Shown in pieces: positions 5,807-56,888 of a stretch of DNA of 64,000 bases. The stretch comes from Escherichia phage CL1. A program made the translations under genes and the position numbers. Position 1 is the first letter of the stretch. The number at the start of each line of letters is the position of its first letter. Under the pieces are notes generated by a model. It was not told the origin of the DNA. It did no database searches and saw nothing but the letters and a program-made list of their open reading frames with translations. Location: sequence record OK040806; one strand, written 5' to 3'.

Positions 5807-5835
5807 TTTACAGGGGCTTTATAGCCCCTTTTAAG
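5807..5835 (+). promoter_or_regulatory. TTTACA followed by GGGGCTTT-AT-AGCCCC stem-loop and TTTT between the two tail-fibre genes
   Basis: hairpin 5813-5828 followed by TTTT; could be weak terminator or promoter with hairpin in spacer. Confidence 0.4.
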
Positions 5836-5848
5836 AGGAAAATTTATA

Positions 5849-8200
5849 ATGGCAGATTACAAGTTGAGTGAATTAAACTCAATCGACACAATCCGTTCAG
5901 ACGACCTTCTTCATGTCAGGGTTAAAAAGAGACCTGAAATGCTAGGTGATGAAGACCGTCGAATGACCTATCAAGACTTCTTAGCATCTTTTAAACTAGA
6001 AAGATTTGTCCAGATTGCTGGCAGTACTATGACGGGTGACTTAGGAATTGTCAAGTTACTTTATGGTGGTAAGGTAGTATTTGACCCTACAGGTTCTTCT
6101 GGGATTACTATGGGGGATGTTTTAAAGACTTTTAAAATCAATGCAAACGGTCTTAAACTCACTATTGCAGATGCTTCAAGGTCTGCAACTGTTTATCATA
6201 CTCTTAATAAGCCAAGTCCTAATGAACTTGGGATGAGAACTAATGAAGAGAATGATGCAAGATATGCAAGACTTGCTGTAAATAACACCTTTAGGGCCAC
6301 TCAAAATATTCTATCTGATAATGAAACTATTATCGTTAAGAATGTTACACAAGGGATGCCGCTGTATATTCGCGGTCAAGATGCAGATGGCTCTAACAGG
6401 TGGTATCTAGGCAATGATAACAAAGGTACAGACAATCTTGTTTTAAAAAATGTTAAATCTGGTGCATATGTAGCTATTTTGGATAGCTTAATCACTGTGA
6501 ACAAATCTATCCAGATTACTGGTCAAGTTCAGCCTTCTGACTTCTCTAACTTAGATGCTAGATACTTTACTCAGACAGCAGCTAATCAGAGGTTTGCGCA
6601 GCTAGTTGGTAATAACACCTTCAGAGGTATTAATAATTTTGTAGGTGAGTTCAATATTACCAGAGATAATGCTGTGCTGGTCATTAAGAATGCCACTGCT
6701 GCAACTGGGTTGTACTTGCTTGGTCAGAAAGCTGATGGGACAAACAAGTTCTACTTAGGGACTGATGACTCTGATTCTGTAGTCAACCTACATAACTACA
6801 CCACGAGTACAACTATCTCTTTGTCAAATGTGATTACCACTACTAAGACTGTGAAAATCACTGGTCAAGTTCAGCCTTCTGATTGGGCTAACATTGACTC
6901 TAGATACATCCCAGCAGGAACTTTGAGTAACCTTGCTAAGCTAAGTGATGCAAATACTTTCAGGTCTGCACAGATTATTAATCGGGATGGCTCATTGTTA
7001 CAGCTAAAGAATACTACACAAGATGGAGAGCTATACTTTGCTGGTCATAATGCTGATGGTGTTAGAAGGTGGTACATTGGGAATGGGGAATCATCCAACC
7101 CAGAAAGACTTATTATCCATAACGGCAGAACTGCAACTACGATTTATATGCAAGATGATTTCTTGTTGAACAAAACTGTTAGAATCATTGGTCAAGTTCA
7201 ACCTTCTGATTGGACTAACTTAGATGCTAGATACTACGTTCAATCTGCAACAGATGCGAAGTACATCTGGTCAGCAGTCAGGGAGACAGTAAGAGCGGAG
7301 GATGGTGGTGTAGCTTGGAATAAACCTTCCGGAATCTATCTTGAGACAGTGCAGGGTGGTGGGGCAAACCGTTTAGTCTCACACATGTTCGTTAATACGG
7401 GAGCATCAACACCTGCTGCACAATTGATGTTTGGTTATAGAAATGGTGGAATGTGGTACAGAACAGCCAGAGATAGGGCTGGTTTTGAGGAGGATTGGTC
7501 TAAGGTTTACACAGAGGCTCAGAAACCAACCCCTTCAGAGATTGGTGCATACACTAAAACTGAAACTGACCAGAAGATTGCACAGGCAGTAAGTGACTCT
7601 ACAGACCTTAATAAAATCTATCCAGTGGGTATTGTGACATGGTTTAACAGTAATGTTGACCCTAATACAGCACTGCCTGGTCTAACTTGGACGTACCTCA
7701 ATAATGGTGTTGGTAGAACTATCAGAATTGCAGCAGCAAACGGTTCAGATGTTGCTACAACTGGTGGTTCAGACTCTGTGACGTTAGCTGTTGGGAACTT
7801 GCCTTCACACACTCACAGATTTTCTGCTACCACTTCATCTTTTGACTACGGAACAAAAAACACTAACACAACTGGTGCTCACACTCACTCTGTAAGTGGC
7901 TCTACTTCATCTGCTGGTAACCACAACCACTCCATTTCGTGGATTGGTCAGAACTCACAGCACTATTCTGGTGGTGGTGGTGCATACGTTGGTTCAGGGC
8001 CGGGTTACACCGATGCTAACGGTGCTCACACCCACACAATCTCTGGTACTGCTGCTTCTGCTGGTAACCATGCTCACTCAGTTGGTATTGGTGCTCACAG
8101 CCATACAGTAAGTGGTAACACTGGGGGTACAGGTTCTGGTTCAGCGTTTAGTGTTACTAACCAGTTCTACAAGTTAATGGCTTGGGTAAGAACTGCTTAA
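5849..8200 (+). CDS. tail fibre protein (internal tandem repeats, C-terminal HxH domain)
   Basis: 783 aa; three ~120-aa internal repeats each containing I[TI]GQVQPSD[FW]xN[LI]D[AS]RY; C-terminus HTHSV...GAHSHTV...GSGSAFSV...WVRTA parallels the upstream fibre. Confidence 0.6.
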
Positions 8201-8279
8201 TCCCTTGTTGACTGATTGTTAAGATGGTGTTAATATTCTTTATGGGTATTCTCACCATCTTGGCTGATGAGGTGATTAA

Positions 8280-8477
8280 ATGCCTACAATCCTAGCAATT
8301 CTTCTAAAAAATCTAGGTAGCTTCTTCTGGAAACTCGTTTTATCCCTTCTAAGTGAATACATGATTGAGAAAGTGTTCTTTAGGCTTGCAAGATATCTTG
8401 CAAGTAAGACAGACACACCTATTGATGATGAGTTCGTAGATAACTTAGAAAAAGCTTTTAAGGGGGAGAATAAATGA
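8280..8477 (+). CDS. hypothetical small hydrophobic protein
   Basis: 65 aa; coupled to next ORF (ATGA overlap). Confidence 0.3.
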   Translation: MPTILAILLKNLGSFFWKLVLSLLSEYMIEKVFFRLARYLASKTDTPIDDEFVDNLEKAFKGENK

Positions 8478-8845
8478 AGTGGCTAGAGGAAGCTTTTAAA
8501 AATAATATTGGTGCAATTGTAGTTGGTATTTTTAGTGTTATTGGTATGTATACCACCATGCAAGTCTCGGATGGTAAGCAAGAAGTATCTATCACAACAA
8601 AGTTACAGCAGCTAGATAATTATTCCAAAAGTAATTATTCAGCTATTCGTGATTTACAGTCTGATATGAGGCTGCTTCAGCTAGGGATGGAGAACCAGAA
8701 AGTCCAGTTAGAGAATGTTAAGGGAGAGAACGCAAAACTTACTAAGACTCTTGACAAATTCTCTGATAGTGTGAACAATCTGGCTCAATCAGTATCAGCC
8801 CTCCAAGCTATTACTGAAAAGAACACAAAGAATACTGAAAAGTAA
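8474..8845 (+). CDS. hypothetical membrane-anchored coiled-coil protein
   Basis: 123 aa; N-terminal hydrophobic helix (IGAIVVGIFSVIGMY) then heptad-like region; last gene before terminator. Confidence 0.35.
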   Translation: MKWLEEAFKNNIGAIVVGIFSVIGMYTTMQVSDGKQEVSITTKLQQLDNYSKSNYSAIRDLQSDMRLLQLGMENQKVQLENVKGENAKLTKTLDKFSDSVNNLAQSVSALQAITEKNTKNTEK

Positions 8846-8852
8846 AGTTTAA

Positions 8853-8879
8853 GGCTCCTTTTTACGGGAGCCTTTTTTT
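8853..8879 (+). terminator. intrinsic terminator ending the structural block
   Basis: GGCTCC-loop-GGAGCC stem followed by TTTTTTT, between convergent genes. Confidence 0.7.
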
Positions 8880-8882
8880 GTT

Positions 8883-9782
8883 TTATTTACCTACTGACAA
8901 AGGCGCTTCAATCTTTCCTGCATGTTGGTAGTTGTTAATACCACCGATAAAGTCACTTGCAGTGAGGTGTTTTAAGTCACTTAAAGTGTTAAGTGGTAGG
9001 CCAATCTCAAAAGTTGGTGCATGGAACTCTTCATTGTTCATCAGTTCATAAACCTGCTTCATATGGTTCTGATAAATCTGAGTATCTCCAAAGACACCTA
9101 TCAAGTACCGTGGAGTGTATCCGGTCATCTTGCAAAGAACTTCCAGAATAAAACCATAAGACGCAATATTAAACGGAAGTCCTAAGAAGGTGTCTACTGA
9201 ACGCTGATACCATTGTAAATCAACTTCACCCTCGTTAGTGATATAAATCTGAAACAGGACATGACAAGGTGCTAAAGCCATTGAGTTTGCTGCAATATCT
9301 GCTGCATTCCAAGCATTAACAAGCATGTAACGGTCTGTGATATCACCCTTCATCTTTGCTACTAAGGTCTCTAGTTGGTCTACAACGCAACCGTTATGAC
9401 CTTCGAAGTTTCTCCACTGAACCCCGTAGATTCTCCCACCTGCATCTTCTAACCAATCTTGTTCAGAAGAATAATTAGAGCTTAACCAACGTTTAAAATC
9501 ATCTGACCAGATAGTCCAACGTTCTCCGTCATTTTCACCCCAAGTACGGTAACGAAGTTCACCCAGCTTATTCTCACCATTCAGGAACCATAAAGCTTCC
9601 CCAATAACTTGCCGCGTAAACACCTGTTTAGAGGTTAAGAGTGGGAAACCAGTTCTCATATCAAAACGAAACTGTGGTGGAGCAAATGCAGAGATAACAT
9701 CTCCAGTTCGTGTAGTACGTAGTTCACCAACGGATAAAACATGGTTCAGGATATTTTTGTAACTCAAATCAGCTTGTGACAT
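8883..9782 (-). CDS. thyA: thymidylate synthase (ThyA family; pyrimidine hydroxymethylase homolog not excluded)
   Basis: 299 aa with RTGxxxxSxF, FPLLTSK, EALWFL, ALAPCH (catalytic Cys) and GLPFNIASY motifs; adjacent to DHFR as in T4 frd-td. Confidence 0.8.
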   Translation of the reverse strand: MSQADLSYKNILNHVLSVGELRTTRTGDVISAFAPPQFRFDMRTGFPLLTSKQVFTRQVIGEALWFLNGENKLGELRYRTWGENDGERWTIWSDDFKRWLSSNYSSEQDWLEDAGGRIYGVQWRNFEGHNGCVVDQLETLVAKMKGDITDRYMLVNAWNAADIAANSMALAPCHVLFQIYITNEGEVDLQWYQRSVDTFLGLPFNIASYGFILEVLCKMTGYTPRYLIGVFGDTQIYQNHMKQVYELMNNEEFHAPTFEIGLPLNTLSDLKHLTASDFIGGINNYQHAGKIEAPLSVGK

Positions 9783-9783
9783 A

Positions 9784-10329
9784 TCAAAATTGCCCTTTTA
9801 CTTGTGGAACATAAATTTCAAAAGTTGCTTTACCATCCTCTGATGGTTTTGACTGTACCTTTGTAAATACTCGGTTATCATACAACTTCTCAAAGAAGTT
9901 TTCAAAAGGTAAATGTACAGTGGCCTCTTCAGTAACTTTATGGAAAACTGTATGGAACACTACATCAGCATACGGTAAAGCATCGACAAGGACACCTGCA
10001 CCACCAATTACAAAGACATCTTCATCAATAGAACTATCAAGATACTTCAAAAATGCCCCAAAGGATTCTTTGCTGGCTTTAGCATACATTACCTCATCTT
10101 TGCCAAAGTCTATGCCTAAGTATGGTACAGAATTTGTTAAGATTAGGTTTGCACGTTCTGGTAAAGGTTTACTCCCCAGAGTCTTGAAAGTCTCGTTACC
10201 CATCACTACTAAGTTGTTTTTAGTGAGTCTCTTAAACTCTTGCATGTCCTGTTTATGTCGAGGCCACGGCATACCAGTTGGAGTACCAAACTCACCATTT
10301 TCACCACTTGCAAAGATTAATTTAATCAT
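9784..10329 (-). CDS. folA: dihydrofolate reductase
   Basis: 181 aa; N-terminal IFASGENGEFGTPTGMPW matches the DHFR G-x-x-G...LPW signature. Confidence 0.7.
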   Translation of the reverse strand: MIKLIFASGENGEFGTPTGMPWPRHKQDMQEFKRLTKNNLVVMGNETFKTLGSKPLPERANLILTNSVPYLGIDFGKDEVMYAKASKESFGAFLKYLDSSIDEDVFVIGGAGVLVDALPYADVVFHTVFHKVTEEATVHLPFENFFEKLYDNRVFTKVQSKPSEDGKATFEIYVPQVKGQF

Positions 10330-10586
10330 TTTGTAAATCCTTTCTTAATGAACCAGTTGATAACATTCTTCACAGCTTTATTGCTATGATAGATTAAGTG
10401 TGGTGTAGGTTGATATGAGCCATAGGCCCAGAAAGCAATGATTTCACTACACCCTGTACACCTTGTACTCTCTTCAGCAATATGACCGTTGACTATTTCA
10501 CTCACCTCACCCTGTAAGTCTGTACATCCACAATGTGGACAACGGATAGGTGTTCCATCAGACTCATAGCAGTGCTCAATTTTCAT
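10326..10586 (-). CDS. hypothetical Cys-rich (zinc-ribbon-like) protein
   Basis: 86 aa; CPHCGC ... CTGC pairs. Confidence 0.4.
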   Translation of the reverse strand: MKIEHCYESDGTPIRCPHCGCTDLQGEVSEIVNGHIAEESTRCTGCSEIIAFWAYGSYQPTPHLIYHSNKAVKNVINWFIKKGFTK

Positions 10587-11102
10587 TTATTTAACCTCAA
10601 AAACTGGTTCAAGAACCAATATAAAGTCTACACAGTCATCTTCTTCATCCAGAATACCATCAAAGTTCTTAGGAACGAAGTCGAAGAGGCTCATAACAAA
10701 GCAGTCAGAAGTAACCCTAATAGTGCCTCCCATATTCTCTACAGTTAGTACTGTACGACTCTCTTTTACCTCTCTCAGAAGATTACTCACAAAGTCATCT
10801 AAGAAGTACTTCATCAACGACTTAAAACCTTTAGGGTAATCTGTACCAGAGTATGTTTCAATCTGAGGTACAAGCTTAACATTTATACTAGTCTTTGTTA
10901 AGAACGTATTAGAGAACATACTATCAGGTAACTTACAAACAATCTTTCCAGTACCTTCATGCTCAATCTCAACAAAACCAGCTTCATCGCCACATGTGAC
11001 TATTTTAAAAGATGCTTCATTCTCACACTGTGAAGCCATAAACTTTTTAAACATCACTTTAAGGAAATCTGCATGAGCATCTTGTAAGAAGATATCAATC
11101 AT
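10587..11102 (-). CDS. hypothetical protein
   Basis: 171-aa ORF co-oriented in minus block. Confidence 0.4.
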   Translation of the reverse strand: MIDIFLQDAHADFLKVMFKKFMASQCENEASFKIVTCGDEAGFVEIEHEGTGKIVCKLPDSMFSNTFLTKTSINVKLVPQIETYSGTDYPKGFKSLMKYFLDDFVSNLLREVKESRTVLTVENMGGTIRVTSDCFVMSLFDFVPKNFDGILDEEDDCVDFILVLEPVFEVK

Positions 11103-11115
11103 AGTTAATCACCTA

Positions 11116-11475
11116 TTATGGGAACAGACACTTAATGTCGTCATTTTTGAAAACGAAACTTGTGTAGTTGTGACCGTCAACATCCAACCAAACAGCCTGA
11201 ATATCTACACCATCAAGATTGTGGTAAAGCTCTTTGATGAAGTGGTCTTTTACAATCTGACTGCTAGTGGTCTCCAGCTTAATGTTTGAGATTGCTGAAC
11301 CTACAGCCATATAGCCCATGACACGTTTTTTCTCAGTATGCTTAATCTTACCATCTTTGTAAGCCATAATGAGATTGGAAAGAATCTTTACACCATAATA
11401 CTTTTCAAGGTGAGTCGGTACACCATAAAAGCCTAATGCGAAGTTTTCAGAGTGGATAATGTTTTCACGTTTCAT
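11116..11475 (-). CDS. hypothetical protein
   Basis: 119-aa ORF. Confidence 0.4.
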   Translation of the reverse strand: MKRENIIHSENFALGFYGVPTHLEKYYGVKILSNLIMAYKDGKIKHTEKKRVMGYMAVGSAISNIKLETTSSQIVKDHFIKELYHNLDGVDIQAVWLDVDGHNYTSFVFKNDDIKCLFP

Positions 11476-11476
11476 A

Positions 11477-11776
11477 TTAATCTGCCAGCCTTAAATTAAA
11501 ATTAACACCAAATTTTTCGCATACTTCCAACATAAACTCAAGAGAGACATTACCAGTGAGATTGATTATGTTGGATACACGAGCCTGAGAGATACCACAA
11601 ATTTTAGCAACTTGCTCTTGAGAAAGACCTCTGGATTTAATCTCTCTCTTAAAACGATGTGCAACGAAATCTCTCATTTCGTCTACATCCATTGGACAAA
11701 TATAACTCTCCATTTCAGCTTCTCTGTCAGCCTCCCAATCATCTTGTGGAGCATAAGGGTCAAAAACCTCATTCAT
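11477..11776 (-). CDS. helix-turn-helix DNA-binding protein
   Basis: HTH-like segment LSQEQVAKICGISQARVSNI; start moved to internal ATG (MNEVF) giving 8-nt overlap with upstream gene. Confidence 0.4.
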   Translation of the reverse strand: MNEVFDPYAPQDDWEADREAEMESYICPMDVDEMRDFVAHRFKREIKSRGLSQEQVAKICGISQARVSNIINLTGNVSLEFMLEVCEKFGVNFNLRLAD

Positions 11777-11981
11777 CTTTCTTCTTCCGTTTTCGTGAAG
11801 TGTCAATCAATGAATCTATGTTTGTAGCCCTAACCTTTTCACGTTCATCGTTAAGATAATCGTCAAGAGCCTTTTCAATCTGTGAATCATCTTGACAGAT
11901 AACTGTAAAGACTGTAAAGCCATCTGTATCATCAATTATCTTACCATAACCGCTTCTGGGATGTAACTTTTTAAGAGCCAT
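11769..11981 (-). CDS. hypothetical protein
   Basis: 70-aa ORF. Confidence 0.35.
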   Translation of the reverse strand: MALKKLHPRSGYGKIIDDTDGFTVFTVICQDDSQIEKALDDYLNDEREKVRATNIDSLIDTSRKRKKKDE

Positions 11982-11982
11982 A

Positions 11983-12366
11983 TCAAATACCTGTGCAGCT
12001 TCTGTTTTCTAAGAAATACTCAACACCATACATAGCTTTTTGCATCAAATCTTCTTTAAACTGAATACGATGATTGAGCATAGCTTGTACGTCAATATCC
12101 TCATGGTGTTTCTCTTTAATGTTTGCAGATTGCAGGAAATACTCTGCAAGAACACGATACTGATAGTCAGTTACCTTATCAGTCATCTCTGTCAAAGACT
12201 CTTCAGAGATTGGTTTAAGTAGCTCGCCATTAGCCAGAGCAACACCTTTAACAATCTGGCAAGTGTCTTCTGGAACACCTGATAAGTCCACATTTGGGAG
12301 TTCTGTTGCATTGACTGGTAAATTCATTGCCATAACCATTGCAGCAGCTAAGAAAATCTTTTTCAT
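11983..12366 (-). CDS. secreted protein of unknown function
   Basis: 127 aa with N-terminal signal peptide MKKIFLAAAMVMAMNLPVNA; own promoter-like element upstream. Confidence 0.4.
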   Translation of the reverse strand: MKKIFLAAAMVMAMNLPVNATELPNVDLSGVPEDTCQIVKGVALANGELLKPISEESLTEMTDKVTDYQYRVLAEYFLQSANIKEKHHEDIDVQAMLNHRIQFKEDLMQKAMYGVEYFLENRSCTGI

Positions 12367-12410
12367 AATGACCTCAAAGTTATATTAAATTTTGTATTAC
12401 ATTGAGTATA

Positions 12411-12439
12411 AAAATAAGCTATAACACCTGACTTGTCAA
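12411..12439 (-). promoter_or_regulatory. sigma70-like promoter candidate for the secreted-protein gene
   Basis: minus-strand TTGACA (plus 12434-12439), 17-bp spacer, TATTTT (TATACT just downstream). Confidence 0.35.
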
Positions 12440-12710
12440 CAGATTTTATAGCTTATCTGGCAGATTTTTTATAAGGCTACTGCCATCCTTCCATACCAAA
12501 CCATACAAGACATAGCCATACCCGACCGTACATCACCTCACAACACTTAAAAACCCTTTTTAGAAGACTCTTAAGTGGTGTAAGTCTCATTTTTATGTAG
12601 CTGAGACTAACTACCCATACTATACCGGACCGAACCTCACCCTACCGGACCAGACACTACCATACAACACCTCACCATACCTCATTAAAAGACCCTCTTA
12701 AAGACCTTTT

Positions 12711-12733
12711 AAAAAGGAGCCTCCGAAGAGGCT
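12711..12733 (-). terminator. intrinsic terminator after gene 12745..13185
   Basis: minus-strand AGCCTC-TTCG-GAGGCT stem followed by U-run (plus-strand A5 at 12711-12715). Confidence 0.6.
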
Positions 12734-12744
12734 ACCTAGTCAAC

Positions 12745-13185
12745 TTAGAAAGGTTTTCTACGTTGCTTGTTAATGTTAGCTTTCATAGCAGCTAAATGGT
12801 TTTGCTGTTCAATCAGTCGTGAACGTTCTTGATGGCTAAGTGCCATAGTGTTCACATTCTCAATCGCTTGAGTAGCTTGCTTTAAAGCTCGACCAATCTT
12901 GCCAGACATTTTACGTTTTGCAATAGTTGCTTGATGCTTAGGTTCAACCACACGATAACCAACACCCATTGAAGCAACCAGATAAATCTTCTCTTCTTTA
13001 AGAAGCTTCTCAATAAACTTCTCAAGTCGGTTTAGGCGTGTAAGCGCATAAGCCTTCATTTCATCTTCGTACTTAACAATGTCACCTTGATAAGTTGGCT
13101 TCACAATACCTAAGAAGGTGTCCATCTCAGAATGTGATACAGTGTCACCGTAACTAAACTTTGCTGCTAATGCTTTTGTATTCAT
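12745..13185 (-). CDS. hypothetical protein
   Basis: 146-aa ORF followed by a minus-strand intrinsic terminator. Confidence 0.4.
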   Translation of the reverse strand: MNTKALAAKFSYGDTVSHSEMDTFLGIVKPTYQGDIVKYEDEMKAYALTRLNRLEKFIEKLLKEEKIYLVASMGVGYRVVEPKHQATIAKRKMSGKIGRALKQATQAIENVNTMALSHQERSRLIEQQNHLAAMKANINKQRRKPF

Positions 13186-13187
13186 AA

Positions 13188-13796
<609 letters not shown>

Positions 13797-13820
<24 letters not shown>

Positions 13821-15325: not shown

Positions 15326-15326
15326 T

Positions 15327-16254: not shown

Positions 16255-16264
16255 CTTGAAAACC

Positions 16265-17108: not shown

Positions 17109-17169
17109 AAGCCCTCCTATATAAGATATTGTATAAGGTACTCTTCCATGAGCACCTTGTCAATACTAA

Positions 17170-38892: not shown

Positions 38893-38901
38893 AACTTTAT
38901 A

Positions 38902-38923
38902 GGGGCTTACAAGCCCCATTTTG
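38902..38923 (+). promoter_or_regulatory. GGGGCTT-ACA-AGCCCC stem-loop between the Prs-like and NAMPT-like genes
   Basis: hairpin 38902-38917 followed by ATTTTG (partial U-tract); same stem sequence family as the cassette hairpins. Confidence 0.45.
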
Positions 38924-38937
38924 AGAGAGATTAAAAG

Positions 38938-40719: not shown

Positions 40720-40734
40720 AAGTATATGATAAAA

Positions 40735-44015: not shown

Positions 44016-44045
44016 TTTGACAAGGGGCTTCAAAGCCCCTTAGAA
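44016..44045 (+). promoter_or_regulatory. sigma70-like promoter (TTGACA-18-TAGAAT) with GGGGCTT-CA-AAGCCCC hairpin inside the spacer, upstream of rIIB-like gene
   Basis: TTGACA 44016-44021, hairpin 44023-44038, TAGAAT 44040-44045. Confidence 0.5.
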
Positions 44046-44090
44046 TAGCCTTACAAAATGATTTATTAACTAACAAGAGAGAGTAATAAG

Positions 44091-47010: not shown

Positions 47011-47031
47011 AGGCTCCTTCGGGAGCCTTTT
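47011..47031 (+). terminator. intrinsic terminator
   Basis: GGCTCC-TTCG-GGAGCC stem followed by TTTTT. Confidence 0.7.
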
Positions 47032-50558: not shown

Positions 50559-50765
50559 ATGCTTTACAGTCGCGAATTGATGGTTACAACTAACGTTAAC
50601 ACAGGTGTAAAACGTTTCTACATGCAAATCTGCGGCGTATGGTCCAGAATATCAGAAGATGACTATTGCAACTATGTAGGAACGGCTATTAATTCTAATT
50701 GCTATCTGACAAGAAACACTAAGAAATTTACAAGGCAGACAGCGATTTACTACTACGACAAATAA
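50559..50765 (+). CDS. hypothetical small Cys-containing protein (array gene 1)
   Basis: 68 aa; consensus promoter at 50480 and AGGAG-type SD upstream. Confidence 0.4.
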   Translation: MLYSRELMVTTNVNTGVKRFYMQICGVWSRISEDDYCNYVGTAINSNCYLTRNTKKFTRQTAIYYYDK

Positions 50766-50822
50766 AGTACTTTACAGGGGGCTTAAAAGCTGATATCTTA
50801 AGCCCCAGATAAAGAGCTTTAC
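50763..50822 (+). promoter_or_regulatory. cassette A copy 1: TAAAGTACTTTA palindrome, -35 TTTACA, inverted repeat GGGGGCTTAA-N11-TTAAGCCCC enclosing -10 (TATCTT), then ATAAAGAGCTTTAC
   Basis: TTTACA 50771-50776, 17-bp spacer, TATCTT 50794-50799; IR 50777-50806. Confidence 0.5.
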
Positions 50823-50853: not shown

Positions 50854-51234
50854 ATGGCTTATCGTGCACCGAAATTCATCAACAAAGACAACTTCCGCAA
50901 CGCACTGGAGAAGTCACTTGATGAAAAATTTAACGGCAAATTGATTGTTGTTCACGCATTCAATTTTAAGTATGATATTAACGGGAATAAAATCAACCAT
51001 TACACGGCAACCATGTTAGATGGTACGCTATCAAGTGAAAAAGCCGTACTGAATGCACTTGCAGGACGTGGTAAAAACCTGATAAGATGCGATAAGAGAC
51101 GTTATCAGGGTGGCGCATATGGTTATGATGATGCTGTTTATCATCTTGAAAATATGGGCTATTCAGTGGAAAAAGCTGGAGTGTCTCAAATAATCGGCAG
51201 TGATGGTTATGTAACAATCTTCAAAATTAACTAA
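50854..51234 (+). CDS. hypothetical protein (array gene 2)
   Basis: 126 aa; preceded by cassette A and conserved GGAGATTCAAAAATG initiation region. Confidence 0.45.
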   Translation: MAYRAPKFINKDNFRNALEKSLDEKFNGKLIVVHAFNFKYDINGNKINHYTATMLDGTLSSEKAVLNALAGRGKNLIRCDKRRYQGGAYGYDDAVYHLENMGYSVEKAGVSQIIGSDGYVTIFKIN

Positions 51235-51294
51235 TAAAGTACTTTACAAGGGGCTTATAGTTCGATAAAGTAAGCCCCAGATAAAGAGCTTTAC
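51235..51294 (+). promoter_or_regulatory. cassette A copy 2 (GGGGCTTA-N13-TAAGCCCC; -10 TAAAGT)
   Basis: palindrome 51235-51246, TTTACA 51243-51248, TAAAGT 51266-51271, IR 51250-51278. Confidence 0.5.
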
Positions 51295-51322: not shown

Positions 51323-51580
51323 ATGGCTATCATCAAAAACGTTGTAATTACTGCAAAGACTCGTGATGACGCTCGCATCATGGCGAAAAAGTTAGGCGGG
51401 AAAGTGGTTGACAACGGAAAACAATCTGCTGTAAGATGGGGCGTGAAGGCTGATAAAAAGTTAACCTTAAAACGCAGTTCAAATAACCTCTTTAAAGGTG
51501 TAAAATCACTCGGTAAAGTGAACGTGTTTACTAAACAAGGTTACAAAATGCACTTATCATTAACTGGCAATTTAATCTGA
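51323..51580 (+). CDS. hypothetical basic protein (array gene 3)
   Basis: 85 aa; cassette A upstream. Confidence 0.45.
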   Translation: MAIIKNVVITAKTRDDARIMAKKLGGKVVDNGKQSAVRWGVKADKKLTLKRSSNNLFKGVKSLGKVNVFTKQGYKMHLSLTGNLI

Positions 51581-51640
51581 TAAAGTACTTTACAAGGGGC
51601 TTATAGTTCGATAAAGTAAGCCCCAGATAAAGAGCTTTAC
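51581..51640 (+). promoter_or_regulatory. cassette A copy 3 (identical core to copy 2)
   Basis: palindrome 51581-51592, TTTACA 51589-51594, TAAAGT 51612-51617, IR 51596-51624. Confidence 0.5.
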
Positions 51641-51669: not shown

Positions 51670-52182
51670 ATGAAAACTGTAGACGCTACCTTTGAAGTTG
51701 TAAAAGAAAAATTCACCATTATTTATGAAGCTGTCAATTGCTTTGAAGCAAGCCATAATCTTGATAATTGGAAGTTTACAGATGACCATCAAGGCGGCGT
51801 GACGATTAAAAATCCTAACTGTCAGAGTAATGAATTTAAATATGCAATCCCTTTGCATTACAGCCTTAAGCAGCTTTCAAGTGACTATGCAAAACAAGGC
51901 CGTGAGAATCCATCGAAAGAGGCTTACACGAGCTTACAGAAAGAACTAGAAAGGGATTTAGAGGCTTCAGAGTATAACATTGCCGCGAAAGTTGTAGATG
52001 CAAACGGTAGCACGGTTTTAGAGAGTTTTTATATTGGTTATGCTTTCGATTGGTGCTACAGTGACGGCGATGATTTAGATGACAGACTAAAAGAGGAAGT
52101 GAACAACGCAGACGCAGAATCTGAAGTATTAGAACGCTTGGAAGCATTAAAAGATTCAGTGATGAATATCTTTAAGAACTAA
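51670..52182 (+). CDS. hypothetical acidic protein (array gene 4)
   Basis: 170 aa; cassette A upstream. Confidence 0.45.
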   Translation: MKTVDATFEVVKEKFTIIYEAVNCFEASHNLDNWKFTDDHQGGVTIKNPNCQSNEFKYAIPLHYSLKQLSSDYAKQGRENPSKEAYTSLQKELERDLEASEYNIAAKVVDANGSTVLESFYIGYAFDWCYSDGDDLDDRLKEEVNNADAESEVLERLEALKDSVMNIFKN

Positions 52183-52184
52183 AT

Positions 52185-52242
52185 AGATTTCTTTACACGG
52201 GGCTAACAAGCGGATATGATAGCCCCAGATAAAGAGCTTTAC
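52185..52242 (+). promoter_or_regulatory. cassette A copy 4 (variant IR GGGGCTA-N14-TAGCCCC; -10 TATGAT)
   Basis: TTTACA 52192-52197, TATGAT 52215-52220, IR 52199-52226 with compensatory stem change. Confidence 0.5.
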
Positions 52243-52567: not shown

Positions 52568-52893
52568 TGACTGGTATCACTGCAATCATTGCCATTTTCG
52601 CGCTATATAAGGCATATAAAGCCTATAATCTAGCAAATAAGGCAATCACACAGCAAGTTAGTAATAACCTTGTAGAGAGCTTTCTAGGGCGTTTAAGTGA
52701 TGAGCAAATAAAGCGGCTAGAGATGAGCTTCAGATATAAAGCGAAAACCTATCAGATAAGTGACATCTTCAAAGAGGATTTTCAGCTTGTCGATGATTAT
52801 AACTCACTGATAAATGCTTTAAATATCAGTGACTTAAAAGATTATTACGCTGTAATTGTCCAAGAACTGAACAAACGAAAACAAAACTGTTGA
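52561..52893 (+). CDS. hypothetical membrane-anchored protein (array gene 6)
   Basis: 110 aa; N-terminal TM helix (MLMTGITAIIAIFALY); overlaps previous gene (ATGTTAATG); no cassette of its own. Confidence 0.4.
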   Translation: MLMTGITAIIAIFALYKAYKAYNLANKAITQQVSNNLVESFLGRLSDEQIKRLEMSFRYKAKTYQISDIFKEDFQLVDDYNSLINALNISDLKDYYAVIVQELNKRKQNC

Positions 52894-52945
52894 CACTGAT
52901 TTTTAGATAACCTAAATTACTAATCAACGGGAGGGATGACCTCCC
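52890..52945 (+). promoter_or_regulatory. cassette B copy 1: promoter TTGACA-17-TAAATT plus 5' leader stem-loop GGGAGG-GATGA-CCTCCC
   Basis: TTGACA 52890-52895 (overlaps upstream stop), TAAATT 52913-52918, hairpin 52929-52945, conserved leader to ATG 52980. Confidence 0.55.
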
Positions 52946-52979
52946 ACTAAACAAAGTCCTTAAACTAGGAGATTCAAAA

Positions 52980-53252
52980 ATGTATACTACTAATAACGGT
53001 CGTACTCTAAATGTAACTTTGCGCCACTATGTTAACGGCGTGATGCACTTTGAAGATTTACAAGCTGAACAACATATCTTAGATTGGCAACTTGCAGGAC
53101 TACAAAAAACTGCTACAGGATACGGGAAAAAGATTCCAACTAGTTGGAAAGTATACTATGAAGGGCGTTTGCGCAGAATTTATCAAGATGTATACAGCAA
53201 TAGCGCAACAAGTTACATCATGGTAAAAGGTAAAAAATTACACTTAGTATAA
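52980..53252 (+). CDS. hypothetical protein (array gene 7)
   Basis: 90 aa; cassette B upstream. Confidence 0.45.
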   Translation: MYTTNNGRTLNVTLRHYVNGVMHFEDLQAEQHILDWQLAGLQKTATGYGKKIPTSWKVYYEGRLRRIYQDVYSNSATSYIMVKGKKLHLV

Positions 53253-53309
53253 AGTACTTTACAAGGGGCTTATAGTTCGATAGAGTAAGCCCCAGATAAA
53301 GAGCTTTAC
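53250..53309 (+). promoter_or_regulatory. cassette A copy 5 (-10 TAGAGT)
   Basis: palindrome 53250-53261, TTTACA 53258-53263, TAGAGT 53281-53286, IR 53265-53293. Confidence 0.5.
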
Positions 53310-53752: not shown

Positions 53753-53808
53753 TTGACACTGATTTTTAAAACAAGTAAATTACTAATCAACGGGAGGGAT
53801 GACCTCCC
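53753..53808 (+). promoter_or_regulatory. cassette B copy 2
   Basis: TTGACA 53753-53758, TAAATT 53776-53781, hairpin GGGAGG/CCTCCC 53792-53808. Confidence 0.55.
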
Positions 53809-53842
53809 CACTAAGTAAAGTCCTTAAACTAGGAGATTCAAA

Positions 53843-54043
53843 ATGGCTATTATCAACGGTTTAAACATTGAAACTACTCATATCAAAGATATCAAAGTTG
53901 GCGATGTAGTCCTTTCCCACGGCGTAGAAAAAACTGTCACTGCAAAGGATATTAAAGAGGATTCTTTCATGGGTAGGACTCTCTTCGGTGATTCTTATTG
54001 CTTAGGTTATCTTGCAGTTTTAAAAGTTGTCAAAAATAACTGA
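53843..54043 (+). CDS. hypothetical protein (array gene 9)
   Basis: 66 aa; cassette B upstream. Confidence 0.4.
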   Translation: MAIINGLNIETTHIKDIKVGDVVLSHGVEKTVTAKDIKEDSFMGRTLFGDSYCLGYLAVLKVVKNN

Positions 54044-54103
54044 TAAAGTACTTTACAAGGGGCTTATAGTTCGATAAAGTAAGCCCCAGATAAAGAGCTT
54101 TAC
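54044..54103 (+). promoter_or_regulatory. cassette A copy 6 (-10 TAAAGT)
   Basis: palindrome 54044-54055, TTTACA 54052-54057, TAAAGT 54075-54080, IR 54059-54087. Confidence 0.5.
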
Positions 54104-54765: not shown

Positions 54766-54999
54766 ATGCTTACAACCGTTTATCTTATCCTTTCTATTTG
54801 TAATGGTCATTCATGTGATTTTAAAGGGCTTGAGGAGTTTACAGGAAGTAAAGAAAATGCCGTTCAGGTCTGTCAGATAGCAAGACAAGACTACCCCGCC
54901 AGTGATGATATACAATGTTACTTTAAGACAGAAGATGAAGAGGGTATCTATTTCGATAGTGTAGACGGGCAATATGAAATTATCATTGAAAAAGACTAG
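54766..54999 (+). CDS. hypothetical protein (array gene 11)
   Basis: 77 aa; hydrophobic N-terminus; no cassette, short hairpin upstream. Confidence 0.35.
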   Translation: MLTTVYLILSICNGHSCDFKGLEEFTGSKENAVQVCQIARQDYPASDDIQCYFKTEDEEGIYFDSVDGQYEIIIEKD

Positions 55000-55053
55000 A
55001 CAAGCCTGATAAAAGTCTGTAAATTGTCAATCAACGGGAGGCGATAACCTCCC
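54997..55053 (+). promoter_or_regulatory. cassette B copy 3 (-35 TAGACA; loop CGATAA)
   Basis: TAGACA 54997-55002, TAAATT 55020-55025, hairpin 55036-55053. Confidence 0.5.
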
Positions 55054-55088
55054 AACTAAACAAAGTCCTTAAACTAGGAGATTCAAAA

Positions 55089-55559: not shown

Positions 55560-55621
55560 TTGCAATCAGATATCAAAACAAGTAAATTACTAATCAACGG
55601 TGAGGGAATGAACTTCCTCAC
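55560..55621 (+). promoter_or_regulatory. cassette B copy 4 (-35 TTGCAA; compensatory stem GTGAGGGA/TTCCTCAC)
   Basis: TTGCAA 55560-55565, TAAATT 55583-55588, hairpin 55600-55621; extra TTGACA boxes at 55463 and 55476. Confidence 0.5.
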
Positions 55622-55653
55622 TAAATAAAGTCCTTAAACTAGGAGATTCAAAA

Positions 55654-56184
55654 ATGAACAAATTTCAAGCTATCAACTACATTCGCTCAAATGCTGTAAT
55701 GTCTAAGCCTGTTAAAGATACCTATGAATTTCGCTGCAATGGGGTACACTTTGCAACCATTACCAAATCAGAAAACGGGGTTTATTACATTCATCGCCGT
55801 AATGTTTATACTGTTGTAGTCTCTCACTTTATGAAAGCTGTAGCGGAATTATTACCGTTATTCTTAGAGATTTACTTGGATGAGTGTAAAAACGTTCATA
55901 GCCACGTTAAAAACCTTTTAAATAGCTATAAAATGGCTTATGAACGTTCAATCAAGTCCTTAAACAAGTTCTATAAAGCCCCTGTAAATACTGTTTCAAT
56001 GGCCTACGCTGCAAATGGTGAAAGAGTAAGACTATCCGATGTGGAAGATATCGAGCTTTACGACCATCGCCCTAACGGTTACTCTCAGACCCTCGGTGAA
56101 GGTTTAACGTTCAATATCAAGAACTTAGAAAAAACTTTAAAAGATATTGAAAAAGATATTGACGAGACAATCAAAAATCTGTAA
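55654..56184 (+). CDS. hypothetical protein (array gene 13)
   Basis: 176 aa; cassette B upstream after a 223-bp spacer. Confidence 0.45.
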   Translation: MNKFQAINYIRSNAVMSKPVKDTYEFRCNGVHFATITKSENGVYYIHRRNVYTVVVSHFMKAVAELLPLFLEIYLDECKNVHSHVKNLLNSYKMAYERSIKSLNKFYKAPVNTVSMAYAANGERVRLSDVEDIELYDHRPNGYSQTLGEGLTFNIKNLEKTLKDIEKDIDETIKNL

Positions 56185-56214
56185 ATTATCAATCAACGGG
56201 AGGGATAACCTCCC
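56159..56214 (+). promoter_or_regulatory. cassette B copy 5 (-35 TTGACG, inside 3' end of upstream gene)
   Basis: TTGACG 56159-56164, TAAATT 56182-56187, hairpin GGGAGG-GATAA-CCTCCC 56198-56214. Confidence 0.5.
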
Positions 56215-56249
56215 TACTAAGCAAAGTCCTTAAACTAGGAGTTATCAAG

Positions 56250-56522
56250 ATGGAACACGTCGAACTGACCACACTTTTACAAATTGCAACCGACAAAGAG
56301 GATGTAGCATTATTCCACCGCATCGAAAGTGATTTATTCAATGGTGAAATCATTAAAGAATCTTACGAAGTTGTCGGATTCAAAGACGGTAAAGCGTTCG
56401 GATTCTTTGACCTCGACAAAGGCAAAGCGGTTACAAAATATGATGTTTTATCTTGTGAGATTCTTACAAAATACAACGAAAAAAAGGCTTGCAACATACG
56501 CCAACATGCAGTAAATTACTAA
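56250..56522 (+). CDS. hypothetical protein (array gene 14)
   Basis: 90 aa; cassette B promoter embedded in 3' end of previous gene. Confidence 0.45.
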   Translation: MEHVELTTLLQIATDKEDVALFHRIESDLFNGEIIKESYEVVGFKDGKAFGFFDLDKGKAVTKYDVLSCEILTKYNEKKACNIRQHAVNY

Positions 56523-56544
56523 TCAACGGGAGGGATAACCTCCC
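56489..56544 (+). promoter_or_regulatory. cassette B copy 6 (-35 TTGCAA, inside 3' end of upstream gene)
   Basis: TTGCAA 56489-56494, TAAATT 56512-56517, hairpin 56528-56544. Confidence 0.5.
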
Positions 56545-56579
56545 TACTGAATAAAGTCCTTAAACTAGGAGATTCTAAA

Positions 56580-56828
56580 ATGGCAACTATCCGCGCAACT
56601 ATCAATGCTTATGGCTGTTATACTCTGGACGTTAAATTTGATATTGGTGGAACTGATGAATGCTTTTCATTAGTGAAGACAGTTATCAAGCAAGTTATCC
56701 CAGATTATAACCCTACTGATGACTTCTGGAAAGATGCTGTAAAAGAGGCATTAAACGATGAGCATCACTATCATTACTGGGGTGACTTGATTGTCTCCCT
56801 GTACTACAATAAACAAGGTTACAACTAA
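56580..56828 (+). CDS. hypothetical protein (array gene 15)
   Basis: 82 aa; cassette B upstream; followed by terminator. Confidence 0.45.
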   Translation: MATIRATINAYGCYTLDVKFDIGGTDECFSLVKTVIKQVIPDYNPTDDFWKDAVKEALNDEHHYHYWGDLIVSLYYNKQGYN

Positions 56829-56838
56829 TCGACGCAGC

Positions 56839-56888
56839 GGGGCTAAATAGCCCCAGATACCTTTACAGCCCCTTAAATGGGCTTTTTT
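56839..56888 (+). terminator. array-terminal hairpin pair: GGGGCT-AAAT-AGCCCC then intrinsic terminator
   Basis: hairpin 56839-56854; second stem AGCCC-loop-GGGCT 56867-56883 followed by TTTTTT. Confidence 0.6.

Follow-up and report, generated by a model that had tools for sequence, protein, structure and literature searches.

The GGGGCT/AGCCCC hairpin that recurs in Escherichia phage CL1 is the stem-loop part of promoter-plus-hairpin cassettes, a kind of element already described in T4-like phages as promoter-early stem-loops (PeSLs) and encountered here in a Felix-O1-like coliphage. The window, by which we mean the whole 64,000-nucleotide stretch analysed (record OK040806), is ~100% identical to Escherichia phage C600M2 (Felixounavirus, 88-kb genome). 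The repetition is real and far from chance: GGGGCT-N(2-32)-AGCCCC is found 10 times for 0.02 expected, and GGGGCTT 22 times on the two strands, a count attained by 0/100 dinucleotide shuffles (2.9 ± 1.9), which is a strong excess rather than an equal frequency in shuffled sequence. No match to the hairpin pattern was found elsewhere in the 88-kb C600M2 genome beyond the ten window copies. Each copy starts 9-16 nt past the upstream stop codon, and a -35-like hexamer (CTTTACA, CTTTATA or TTGACA) lies 0-1 nt from the 5' arm in 9 of the 10; neither feature was remarked upon in the preliminary description. The latter spoke of at least ten regulatory contexts, which overstates their variety, as the ten copies fall into some four kinds of setting: the six cassettes, nearly identical to one another, the spacer of one promoter, two hairpins at gene ends beside a ribosome-binding site, and a truncated cassette closing the array. 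Loop length does vary, as had been claimed, but between 4 nt in the short hairpins and 11-14 nt in the cassettes when extra inner pairs are counted, instead of between 2-4 and 13 nt. GGGGCTT matches at 21393, 25721 and 58439 (minus strand) were rejected as family members, being ordinary terminators with the arms reversed (AAGCCnC...GGGGCTTTTT).

We consider it likely that the stem is one component of a family of PeSL-type promoter/stem-loop cassettes related to one another, which would work as a promoter in DNA and as a punctuating hairpin in read-through RNA. This reading is based on a non-random family, promoter conservation, covarying pairing, the modular gain and loss of units and a layout shared with the RB49 PeSLs, from which we infer promoter activity, an RNA-level effect and the exact mechanism in this phage. 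At the DNA level, the full cassettes and the rIIB site would be host sigma-70 early promoters (TTTACA or TTGACA, 17-18 nt, TAnnnT). At the RNA level, read-through transcripts from the upstream gene would fold the same stretch into a hairpin shortly after the stop codon, while transcripts from the cassette's own promoter would begin within or just past the 3' arm, so that they would lack the hairpin. The hairpin would punctuate read-through RNA between small early genes, perhaps by attenuating or terminating transcription, by offering a processing site or by blocking 3' exonucleases, and the cassette promoter would then restart transcription for the next gene.

Six copies are full 62-nt units, called cassette A, each with a predicted sigma-70-type promoter (TTTACA, 17 nt, TAnnnT) whose -10 lies inside the hairpin loop. 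The entire unit folds as a three-tier hairpin of ~20 bp. Its lower helix, the outermost, has 6-7 bp and is separated by a 1x1 mismatch from a middle helix of 5 bp, beyond which a 3x3 internal loop leads to the upper helix of 8-9 bp (GGGGCUUAU/GUAAGCCCC), whose loop holds the -10. All six are on the plus strand, and a promoter scan recovers them together with the rIIB promoter. Copy 1 (50761..50822) has its -35 TTTACA at 50771-50776, its -10 TATCTT at 50794-50799 and its upper stem GGGGCTTAA/TTAAGCCCC at 50778-50806, between an upstream stop codon (50763-50765) and an ORF starting at 50854; it scores 86.2 bits with the covariance model R1 (E 9e-18), the promoter scan picks both hexamers, and its RNA folds at -21.9 kcal/mol (z -4.2). 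Copy 2 (51233..51294) carries TTTACA (51243), a 17-nt spacer and TAAAGT (ending at 51271), with the stem GGGGCTTA/TAAGCCCC at 51250-51278 and lower helices UAAAGU/GCUUUA and CUUUA/UAAAG (85.6 bits with model R1; -21.6 kcal/mol, z -4.9). Copies 3 (51579..51640; promoter 51589-51617, stem 51596-51624) and 6 (54042..54103; promoter 54052-54080, stem 54059-54087) both score 84.4 bits, and copy 5 (53248..53309), with TTTACA, 17 nt and TAGAGT at 53258-53286 and a stem at 53265-53293, scores 84.2 bits. The stem was said to be in every cassette A copy; five of the six have GGGGCTT/AAGCCCC, but copy 4 (52182..52242; TTTACA, 17-nt spacer, TATGAT at 52192-52220) is a variant with GGGGCTA/TAGCCCC at 52199-52226, in which the position-7 pair is compensated (repeat R1 ATAGATTTCTTTA; 68.4 bits with model R1; -19.3 kcal/mol). 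Cassette folds range from -19 to -22 kcal/mol (z -3.2 to -4.9). Minimum free energies fail to single out the plus strand: for GGGGCT-type copies the complement is marginally more stable (-23.5 versus -21.6 kcal/mol), and a preference for the plus strand is confined to GGGGTT-type copies (-22.5 versus -18.8 kcal/mol).

The predicted rIIB promoter (44017..44046, plus strand) combines TTGACA (44017-44022) and TAGAAT (44041-44046) with an 18-nt spacer occupied by the hairpin AAGGGGCT-tcaa-AGCCCCTT, which starts 12 nt past the rIIA stop codon (promoter scan score 11/12; fold -15.3 kcal/mol). This copy had been recognized previously at 44023-44038, one base away from its position at 44024-44039; with its extra pairs the stem covers 44022-44041. 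TTGACA, the stem and TTAGAAT are kept in 29 felixounavirus-like IMG/VR genomes, two of which have a one-base C.A mismatch in the stem. The loop shows CA <-> TG flips and is GAAA in a distant clade, and a relative at 56% identity has a different stem (AAGTGGTC/GGCCACTT) with the -10 in its loop.

Variation among the cassettes was surveyed on 128 copies from 23 related genomes, and covariation on the 90 distinct copies. The -35 TTTACA is present in 128/128, and TAnnnT follows it after 17 nt in 119 copies and after 18 nt in 8, with T1, A2 and T6 of the -10 hexamer kept and positions 3-5 free. Within Felixounavirus, stem positions 5 and 7-9 vary through wobble or compensation, the inner pairs 7-9 occurring as TA/AT, AT/TA and TG/AT/TA/CG. 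Among the distinct copies, pair 23-45 is CG in 55, UG in 33 and UA in 1, pair 7-60 is GC in 71, UA in 11 and GU in 2, and pair 8-59 is UG in 80, UA in 7 and CG in 3. The covariation score is 0.067 compared with 0.049 in shuffles (0/500 reach 0.067) and at most 0.030 when the partners are slid, a score that reflects few independent events because the copies are related and recombining. The model built on Felixounavirus also detects four copies in Erwinia phage Panisse, of the sister genus Kolesnikvirus (E 1e-11 to 1e-14), where the cassette is GGTGTTTA/TAAGCACC and the third core pair has changed from G-C to U-A in 4/4 copies, which may represent a single event that spread. Other Kolesnikvirus promoter hairpins have GGGGTTA/TAACCCC, GAGGGG/CCCCTC or GCCAC/GTGGC. 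From the U.G wobbles and compensatory pairs, action of the element at the RNA level is very probable, which agrees with the RNA-processing enzyme proposed in the preliminary description, and the pattern of variation points to a conserved RNA structure in preference to recognition of an exact sequence.

A more specific RNA-level reading is that host RNase III would cut the ~20 bp interrupted helix of cassette A in read-through RNA, as in the early region of T7, leaving the upstream message with a protective 3' hairpin and the downstream message with a 5' end nearly identical to that of the primary transcript. The T7 early-region RNase III hairpins do resemble cassette A, being interrupted helices of ~20 bp with an internal loop, located between early cistrons, lacking a U-tract and forming a repeated family in one genome, but they enclose no promoter. 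The helix length and internal loop seen in the folds, the covariation in both lower and upper helices, the lack of a U-tract after the hairpin and the intercistronic position in an early multigene region all agree with such processing. However, the short copies, with just 6-8 bp and a weak lower helix, are too small for sites of this type, so that RNase III cannot account for the whole family, and a search of Rfam gave no matching family. We regard processing by RNase III as an unlikely explanation.

The fixed stem had been taken to imply recognition of the sequence itself, with a phage or host protein or nuclease binding the GGGGCU(U)/(A)AGCCCC stem as RNA or DNA, and every copy serving as a site for one factor that might act in antitermination, set the time of early shut-off, or take part in processing or recombination. 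The GGGG/CCCC core and the position-6 T-A pair are indeed invariant in the 128 cassette copies, the core shows no variation in >200 copies within Felixounavirus, both the core and that pair are the same at three single sites (19-28 genomes each) where loops vary freely, and the G-run adjoins the -35-like hexamer in all but one of the window copies. This invariance is not fully explained by pairing alone, and the PeSL authors speculated in the same way on a co-evolving sequence-specific factor for GGGG...CCCC stems (PMC2839356). Nevertheless, invariance at the genus level is also expected from shared descent and homogenization. The common flanks CTTTACA (5') and AGATA (3') show that the copies are related through duplication and recombination and did not arise independently. 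ORF-plus-cassette units have been gained, lost and reordered between genomes: ORF w16 and one cassette are absent from 5 genomes, one of which has a chimeric cassette, ORF x27 and its cassette are found on either side of w21, depending on the genome, and one genome has a duplicated unit. The stem would look fixed because copies descend from one another, because the recombination between cassettes that moves these units also homogenizes them, and because a short G/C stem tolerates few single changes. Moreover, all four Panisse cassettes have U-A at the third core pair, different stems occupy equivalent positions in Panisse and in the 56%-identity rIIB relative, positions 5 and 7-9 wobble or are compensated, two genomes carry the C.A mismatch at rIIB, and the spacing between arms, from 2 to 15 nt, is ill-suited to a dimeric DNA binder. 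At Prs/NAMPT, 6/29 genomes have an HNH homing-endonuclease gene in place of the hairpin, which is dispensable there, and the reuse of one stem is also seen in the RB49 PeSLs and in this phage's own terminators. Recognition of the sequence itself is thus not supported, and seems improbable.

Three partial copies, for which the coordinates 5813-5828, 38902-38917 and 56839-56854 given previously are exact, are hairpins without a usable -10, and can be accommodated only as incomplete cassettes or as weak terminators. Between the two tail-fibre genes (5806..5835, plus strand), CTTTACA is followed by AGGGGCT-ttat-AGCCCCT (5812-5829) and TTTT, with no -10 at the right spacing and a possible lower helix UUCUU/AAGAG over the downstream ribosome-binding site (-16.5 kcal/mol, z -3.0); in 19 genomes the stem and flanks are invariant, with 8 loop variants. 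Between Prs and NAMPT (38895..38922, plus strand), CTTTATA precedes GGGGCT-taca-AGCCCC (38902-38917) and ATTTT, a -10 is absent, the fold is -12.8 kcal/mol, and 21 genomes show 9 loop variants. At the array end (56839..56883, plus strand), a truncated cassette (56839-56867), GGGGCT-aaat-AGCCCC followed by AGATA, the 3' flank common to cassette A, and CCTTTACA, runs into a canonical terminator, AGCCCC-ttaaat-GGGCT and TTTTTT (56867-56883; -21.5 kcal/mol in all). Judged by sequence, the Felix O1 terminator t23 (gcccctatttaaaggggctttttt) resembles this arrangement and is probably an element of the same type. Pairing in the 5813 and 56839 copies is limited to GGGGCT/AGCCCC (6-7 bp).

The T-tracts after the 5813 and 38902 copies could mean that the family consists of ordinary, weak Rho-independent terminators whose overlap with promoters is incidental. 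Felix O1 terminator t76, which from its gene position and sequence seems to correspond to the 5813 hairpin, is annotated as Rho-independent (PMC3185647), and a PeSL stem-loop tested on lacZ lowered its expression about as much as the strong terminator rrnB T1 (PMC2839356). However, in a hairpin-plus-T-run scan 0/10 family hairpins pass, and the real terminators of the genome form a separate canonical family reusing another stem, AGGCTCC-TTCG-GGAGCCT followed by a T-run, which bears out the earlier statement that this is not a generic terminator hairpin. The cassette hairpins are followed by AGAUAAAG, and classical intrinsic termination is unlikely for them because they have no U-tract; in the distant clade the tail after the Prs/NAMPT hairpin is ACTTTG or ACTATTG. 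Furthermore, the conservation of TAnnnT at a fixed spacing indicates that the promoter overlap is selected, not incidental, and we find it highly doubtful that weak termination is the whole explanation.

Least probable is a DNA-level element, either an inverted repeat extruded as a cruciform or hairpin or a pair of operators for a phage repressor shutting early promoters (the HTH_3, Cro/C1-type protein encoded in the window at 11477-11806, minus strand, being a candidate), since, although palindrome R1 (TAAAGTACTTTA) overlaps the -35, R2 (TAAAGAGCTTTA) lies just past the start site, recombination between cassettes is evident, and the hypervariable loops of the short hairpins are often flipped, with reverse-complement pairs at all three sites as expected of strand-switching at DNA hairpins, the covariation joins the 5' half of R1 to the 3' half of R2 (GC 71, UA 11) and not the halves within each palindrome, which fits one long hairpin and not two operators, the frequent U.G (G.T) pairs would leave the opposite strand of a cruciform with A.C mismatches, and loop flipping shows that DNA hairpins can form in replication, not that they function.

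Promoter/stem-loop cassettes of the PeSL type can be compared with several known systems. REP-type hairpins, which protect upstream mRNA from 3' exonucleases, also have a G/C-rich stem just past a stop codon, no U-tract and many repeats, and could likewise set the stability of upstream and downstream messages, but they are host chromosomal elements, often in inverted pairs, bound by gyrase and IHF-related factors and devoid of promoter overlap. A precedent in sequence is in Felix O1, whose genome paper reports 57-bp and 39-bp direct repeats (Whichard et al. 2010, PMC3185647): the former (CTTTACATGGGGCTTAAAAGTCTGTAAAGTAAGCCCCAGATAAAGAGCTTTACCACT) is cassette A and the latter (TTGACACTGG...ACATCAAC) is cassette B, both listed there, in contrast with the present reading, without function, structure or link to promoters. 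In that work, ORFs 16 and 20, directly downstream of the 57-bp repeat, are maximally expressed at 5 min, and the passage of transcription through terminators, and its timing, are stated to be unknown (PMC3185647).

In organization, the cassettes are like the PeSLs of the T4-like phages RB49/phi1, PST/T4 and nt-1/KVP40 (Arbiol et al. 2010, PMC2839356; Comeau et al. 2014, PMC4122927). These phages are Straboviridae while this phage belongs to the Ounavirinae, and no sequence homology between the cassettes and RB49 PeSLs was detected beyond an 18-mer leader match. Cassette A also has two extra lower helices formed by the flanking repeats R1 and R2, not described for PeSLs, which place the whole promoter inside a ~20 bp hairpin, and promoter and terminator activities and mini-circles are experimental in RB49/phi1 where this phage is known from its sequence. 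The layout is nonetheless the same: an upstream stop codon in A/T-rich DNA, a sigma-70-type -35/-10 with a 17-nt spacer, a stem-loop with a G-run then a C-run, described for PeSLs with G-T pairs and lying between -35 and -10 or overlapping the -10 (PMC2839356), then a conserved leader, a ribosome-binding site and ATG. Reading RB49 directly, we found both arrangements, TTGACA-GGGGAGgataaCTCCCC-TACAAT with the hairpin in the spacer and TTGACA...GGGAGTAgTAAGATACTCCC with the -10 in the loop, and GGGGATC/GATCCCC upstream of four of the ORFs examined. In both systems, one stem 'brand' is reused per genome, in arrays of small ORFs of unknown function from which single ORFs are gained, lost and reordered.

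The ten hairpins found at gene ends in the window form a related family: conserved sigma-70 elements overlap seven of them, and their pairing is kept by wobble pairs and compensation. The heptamer GGGGCTT occurs 22 times against 2.9 ± 1.9 in shuffled sequences, which confirms the excess implied by the preliminary description, and the pattern GGGGCT-N(2-32)-AGCCCC occurs 10 times in the window against 0.02 expected and is not found in the remaining 24 kb of the genome. The hairpins start at 5813, 38902, 44024, 50778, 51250, 51596, 52199, 53265, 54059 and 56839, all on the + strand; the copies first listed are thus real, with the rIIB coordinate one base off. The stem GGGGCTT/AAGCCCC, thought to be present in every copy of cassette A (a 62-nt unit, six copies), is present in five of the six, and the other carries GGGGCTA/TAGCCCC. 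Three GGGGCTT matches, at 21393, 25721 and 58439 (-), were rejected as family members: they are ordinary terminators, with the arms in opposite order and a T-run after them. Genes annotated in the window include those for tail fibres, Prs, NAMPT and rIIA/rIIB as well as a series of hypothetical ORFs, and the array of hypothetical ORFs at 50.7-56.9 kb holds 7 of the 10 copies. Every hairpin starts 9-16 nt after an upstream stop codon (10/10), the stem is followed by an ATG at 20-51 nt, and CTTTACA, CTTTATA or TTGACA lies directly 5' in nine of the ten. Over a 4-kb piece, the window matches Escherichia phage C600M2 (OK040807.1; Ounavirinae, Felixounavirus, 88,159 bp) at 100% identity, and many Felix O1-like phages show 90-94% identity to this piece. 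ORF coordinates in window 1-20000 are offset from those of OK040807.1 by -4 to +2 bases, differing by place; therefore a few small indels separate the two, although the 4-kb and 1.5-kb pieces compared are 100% identical.

The proposal that these are not generic terminators holds: none of the ten is picked out in a terminator scan (43.5-58.5 kb) as a hairpin with a U-tract directly after it, the tails reading TTTTAAG, ATTTTGA, TTAGAAT and AGATAAAG, while canonical terminators of the same genome do have this arrangement. The latter, of the form (A)GGCTCC-TTCG/CGAA-GGAGCC(T), lie at 8851-8874, 12718-12733, 28914-28931, 40731-40754, 47011-47028 and 62670-62687, with a T-run after most. An Rfam covariance-model search of 43.5-57.5 kb, with E up to 5, gave no meaningful match. 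A transposable or MITE-like element was rejected, since terminal inverted repeats and target duplications are missing and all copies are intergenic and in one orientation, as was a dimeric DNA operator made of the two arms, whose spacing varies from 2 to 15 nt.

Cassette A reads TAAAGTACTTTACA-a-GGGGCTT-atagttcgaTAAAGT-AAGCCCC-AGATAAAGAGCTTTAC, then a shared leader and ...GGAGATTCAAAAATG. It contains a sigma-70-type promoter (TTTACA, 17-nt spacer, TAAAGT), and a promoter scan detects all six copies as well as the rIIB site. A set of 128 copies was compiled from the window plus 22 related IMG/VR genomes: TTTACA is present in every one, and TAnnnT follows at 17 nt in 119 and at 18 nt in 8, the single exception being TAAAGC. 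Positions 3-5 of the -10 are highly variable (TAAAGT, TATCTT, TAAGAT, TAGTAT, TATGAT, TACCTT and others). A functional -10 element should be conserved in this way, A2 and T6 being the most critical -10 bases of sigma-70 promoters. The copies at 5813, 38902 and 56839 have no -10 element, and a sigma-70 promoter at 5813 and 38902 was rejected on direct reading, as no TAnnnT lies 16-19 nt from a -35-like hexamer. In Felix O1, expression of ORFs 16 and 20, which lie directly 3' of the published 57-bp repeat (cassette A), peaks at 5 min post infection (PMC3185647); beyond this RT-PCR timing table, a broad-term literature search found no transcript maps of Felix O1-like phages. The early block on the minus strand encodes a small HTH protein of the Cro/C1 type (11477-11806 (-); HTH_3, E 5e-11), a candidate regulator of early promoters.

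As RNA, cassette A folds into one three-tier hairpin (-21.6 kcal/mol, z -4.9): UAAAGU/GCUUUA, a 1x1 mismatch, CUUUA/UAAAG, a 3x3 loop (CAA/AGA) and GGGGCUUAU/GUAAGCCCC, the upper stem closing a loop of 11-13 nt that contains the -10. It comprises 20-21 base pairs in three tiers plus the 3x3 loop, against only 6-8 base pairs in the short copies. The full cassette A hairpin is longer than the stem noted initially, and it covaries. In 90 distinct copies, pair 23-45 (upper stem position 5) is C-G in 55, U.G in 33 and U-A in 1; in the lower helix, pair 7-60 is G-C in 71, U-A in 11, G.U in 2 and unpaired in 6, and pair 8-59 is U.G in 80, U-A in 7 and C-G in 3, and never unpaired. For covariation the alignment scores 0.067, compared with 0.049 for shuffles (0/500 as high) and at most 0.030 with slid partners, in copies that are related and recombining and therefore represent few independent covariation events. 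For the inner pairs the arms were anchored on the G- and C-runs; in a MAFFT alignment a one-base difference in loop length splits the partners of position 7 between columns, masking compensation. Counted in this way, inner pairs 7-9 occur in the compensated forms T-A/A-T, A-T/T-A and T.G/A-T/T-A/C-G. In copies whose loop has one base less, the 5' arm changes in step with the invariant last T of the -10 (GGGGCTT-A vs GGGGCT-A), and the same bases are therefore under promoter and pairing constraint. Because covariation couples the 5' half of R1 with the 3' half of R2 (the two flanking repeats), and not the halves within each palindrome, one long hairpin is favoured over two DNA operators. Folding energy does not decide the strand, since GGGGCT-type copies fold at least as well as the complement; that the cassette hairpin probably acts in RNA is indicated by how often wobble pairs occur and by the location of all genes here on the + strand.

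The fixed stem had been taken as a sign that the sequence itself is recognized, a proposal that comparison with more distant relatives does not support. The cassette is present across Ounavirinae (Felixounavirus, Mooglevirus, Suspvirus, Kolesnikvirus; 288 records). Trained on Felixounavirus copies only, a covariance model recovers six copies in the window and a further four (E 1e-11 to 1e-14) in Erwinia phage Panisse, a Kolesnikvirus. All four Panisse copies have the arms GGTGTTTA/TAAGCACC, in which the third core G-C pair is replaced by U-A and position 5 is U.G, and other Panisse promoter hairpins carry GGGGTTA/TAACCCC, GAGGGG/CCCCTC or GCCAC/GTGGC at the same positions. Because the core pair is compensated in Panisse, other stems occupy equivalent positions and cassette B stems also vary between Felixounaviruses, conservation appears to concern the structure and the order of G-run before C-run, not the exact sequence. 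Within Felixounavirus the GGGG/CCCC core never changes, a notable invariance that can be explained by descent, by the cost of single changes in a short stem, and by homogenization among copies, the last being suggested by the different loop types found at orthologous cassette positions. A co-evolving binding factor would be a further, less likely explanation. Overall, the evidence points to conserved structure rather than recognition of an exact sequence; of the initial reading there remains that these hairpins are not generic terminators and probably act in RNA.

Nor is stem reuse special to GGGGCT, because the list of all perfect hairpins contains two other reused stems. The terminator stem AGGCTCC-TTCG-GGAGCCT, followed by a T-run, is present in six copies. 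Cassette B, with the stem GGGAGG/CCTCCC, is also present in six copies (52890-52980, 53753-53845, 54997-55088, 55560-55655, 56159-56250 and 56490-56580); its hairpin lies just 3' of a TTGACA-17-TAAATT promoter, which places it at the transcript's 5' end, and the leader ...AAGTCCTTAAACTAGGAGATTCAAAAATG is common to cassettes A and B. In relatives the cassette B stem is GGGGAGGG/CCTTCCCC, GGGGC/GCCCC or GGGC/GCCC.

At the single sites, comparison of relatives separates constant stems from changing loops. Between rIIA and rIIB, TTGACA, the stem and TTAGAAT are kept in 29 felixounavirus-like genomes, with a one-base stem mismatch in two. Its loop reads CA or the reverse complement, TG, and a clade with ~80% protein identity has GAAA instead. 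A relative with 56% rIIB identity has TTGACA-17-TCTAAT and a different hairpin, AAGTGGTC/GGCCACTT, with the -10 in its loop. A RegB-type endoribonuclease beside rIIB was considered and rejected: the Panisse protein (L166 50-562) and its window homologue (45302-45850, 44% identity) match only an SLT transglycosylase domain. Their alignment starts with a hydrophobic N-terminal stretch, and the Panisse label 'putative T4 endoribonuclease RegB' looks wrong. The Prs/NAMPT hairpin has a constant stem, and its loop takes 9 forms across 21 genomes. An ORF for a 163-aa HNH-type homing endonuclease exactly replaces this hairpin and its flanks in 6 of 29 genomes (L060 692-1183, in place of window 38893-38937), so that the hairpin is dispensable there. 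In the hairpin between the tail-fibre genes only the four loop bases change, with 8 variants in 19 genomes; its stem and flanks are the same throughout. At window 5819-5822, 38908-38911 and 44030-44033, and at the orthologous sites in L005-L109, the 4-nt loops vary far more than their flanks. Six loop variants form reverse-complement pairs, such as TTCAAA/TTTGAA and TTTATA/TATAAA; such pairs are a signature of loop inversion, by a switch of strand at DNA hairpins during replication, and show the loop sequence to be unconstrained. The 56839 copy has the 3' flank AGATA and a CCTTTACA in common with cassette A and looks like a truncated cassette ahead of the real terminator at the array end. Beyond it, window 56900-58400 belongs to a conserved 1.6-kb ORF-free stretch between convergent transcription units, dense in repeats of the TTGTTAA/TGTTAAG type, many of them 11 nt apart. 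Its counterpart in phage mio lies near the genome end and is annotated repeat_region; this is probably a terminal-repeat or replication-origin region.

We propose that the cassette works at two levels. In DNA it would start early transcription of the next small gene; in RNA the same bases, within a transcript coming from upstream, would fold and mark the end of the previous message. Transcripts from the cassette promoter would escape the hairpin, because they are predicted to start in or just after its 3' arm. Among the possible effects in RNA, we rank first a combination of attenuation and shielding of the upstream message against 3' exonucleases. Second comes cleavage of the RNase III type. 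RNase III processing sites of the T7 early-region type span about two helical turns of paired RNA, and the cut often falls in an internal loop; such cleavage might concern the 20-bp cassette hairpin only and could not apply to the short copies. Classical intrinsic termination ranks third and is plausible only for 5813 and 38902, which are followed by TTTT and ATTTT, respectively; the apparent Felix O1 counterpart of the 5813 hairpin is annotated as terminator t76 (PMC3185647). A bolder and, in our opinion, unlikely reading is that the three-tier, promoter-enclosing hairpin is a dedicated signal, cut by RNase III or bound by a phage factor reading the G-run stem, and that the dual-coded unit is also a vehicle moving genes between phage families. 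If so, read-through and cassette-started transcripts would have the same 5' end, and each small early gene would be expressed independently of its position in the array.

Exchange of units between genomes is directly visible when ORF clusters and cassettes are mapped in 23 arrays (the window and 22 related loci). ORF w16 and one cassette are absent from five genomes; L052, one of the five, retains a cassette that is chimeric between the two flanking ones. ORF x27 with its cassette lies 5' of w21 in two genomes and 3' of w21 in two others, one genome has a duplicated unit, and several further single ORFs are gained or lost beside cassettes.

Cassette A corresponds to the 57-bp direct repeat of Felix O1 and cassette B to the 39-bp one, both listed in the Felix O1 paper only as repeats (PMC3185647). 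A likely function may thus be given to Felix O1-type repeats listed without explanation since 2010, in phages widely used in Salmonella and E. coli typing and biocontrol. In an alignment of about 130 natural variants, promoter constraints (-10 T1, A2, T6) can be told apart from RNA-pairing constraints on the same bases, which is of use in the design of compact insulated expression units.

The closest known elements are the PeSLs (promoter-early stem-loops) of T4-like phages, in which strong sigma-70 promoters are combined with stem-loops. Each is preceded by a stop codon in A/T-rich DNA and followed by a ribosome-binding site and an ATG; PeSLs are concentrated in hyperplastic regions, where they mediate shuffling of ORFs, and they give rise to mini-circles (PMC2839356; PMC4122927). 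One PeSL stem-loop reduced lacZ as much as rrnB T1, and the GGGG...CCCC stem was speculated to be a protein target (PMC2839356). Direct reading of the array of the T4-like phage RB49 reveals both placements found here, TTGACA-GGGGAGgataaCTCCCC-TACAAT and TTGACA-GGGGATCnnnGATCCCC-TATAAT as at rIIB, and TTGACA...GGGAGTAgTAAGATACTCCC as in cassette A, with the -10 in the loop; each stem type is reused several times in RB49. Descent from RB49 PeSLs could not be demonstrated, and the likeness is architectural: the cassette covariance model has no match in 50 kb of RB49, and the sole hit of short-word blastn is a leader 18-mer (E 0.009). This 18-mer, CCCATCGAAACGAAACAA, lies just 3' of the promoter hairpin in Panisse (L166 5363-5380) and in an RB49 PeSL (L167 31958-31975), and related ATCGAAAC leaders recur in both phages; it could reflect convergence or exchange of cassettes between phage families.

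The -35 and -10 elements ~17 nt apart that characterize PeSL promoters are found in the six cassette A copies and at rIIB, and not at 5813, 38902 and 56839, which without a -10 correspond to 'degraded' PeSLs (PMC4122927). PeSL stem-loops, stable and typically made of a G-run followed by a C-run, lie between the -35 and -10 or overlap the -10; likewise, the rIIB hairpin fills the spacer and the cassette A -10 is in the loop or the 3' arm. The PeSL flanks (a stop codon 5' in A/T-rich DNA, a ribosome-binding site and ATG within ~100 bp) are present in the window, and, as for PeSLs, the copies are concentrated in an array of small ORFs with loss, gain, duplication and reordering between relatives. 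There are two differences. The host genome is a Felixounavirus (Ounavirinae) and not a T4-like myovirus, which bears on the known range and not on the mechanism; it would extend promoter/stem-loop cassettes beyond T4-like phages and supports the idea that such units are a general means by which virulent phages express small accessory genes and trade them with one another. In addition, unlike in PeSLs, extra lower helices of the cassette A hairpin enclose the whole promoter. Judged by sequence, the window elements thus seem to have every feature that defines PeSLs at this level, and would be PeSL-type cassettes carried by a Felix O1-like phage and novel in one structural respect.
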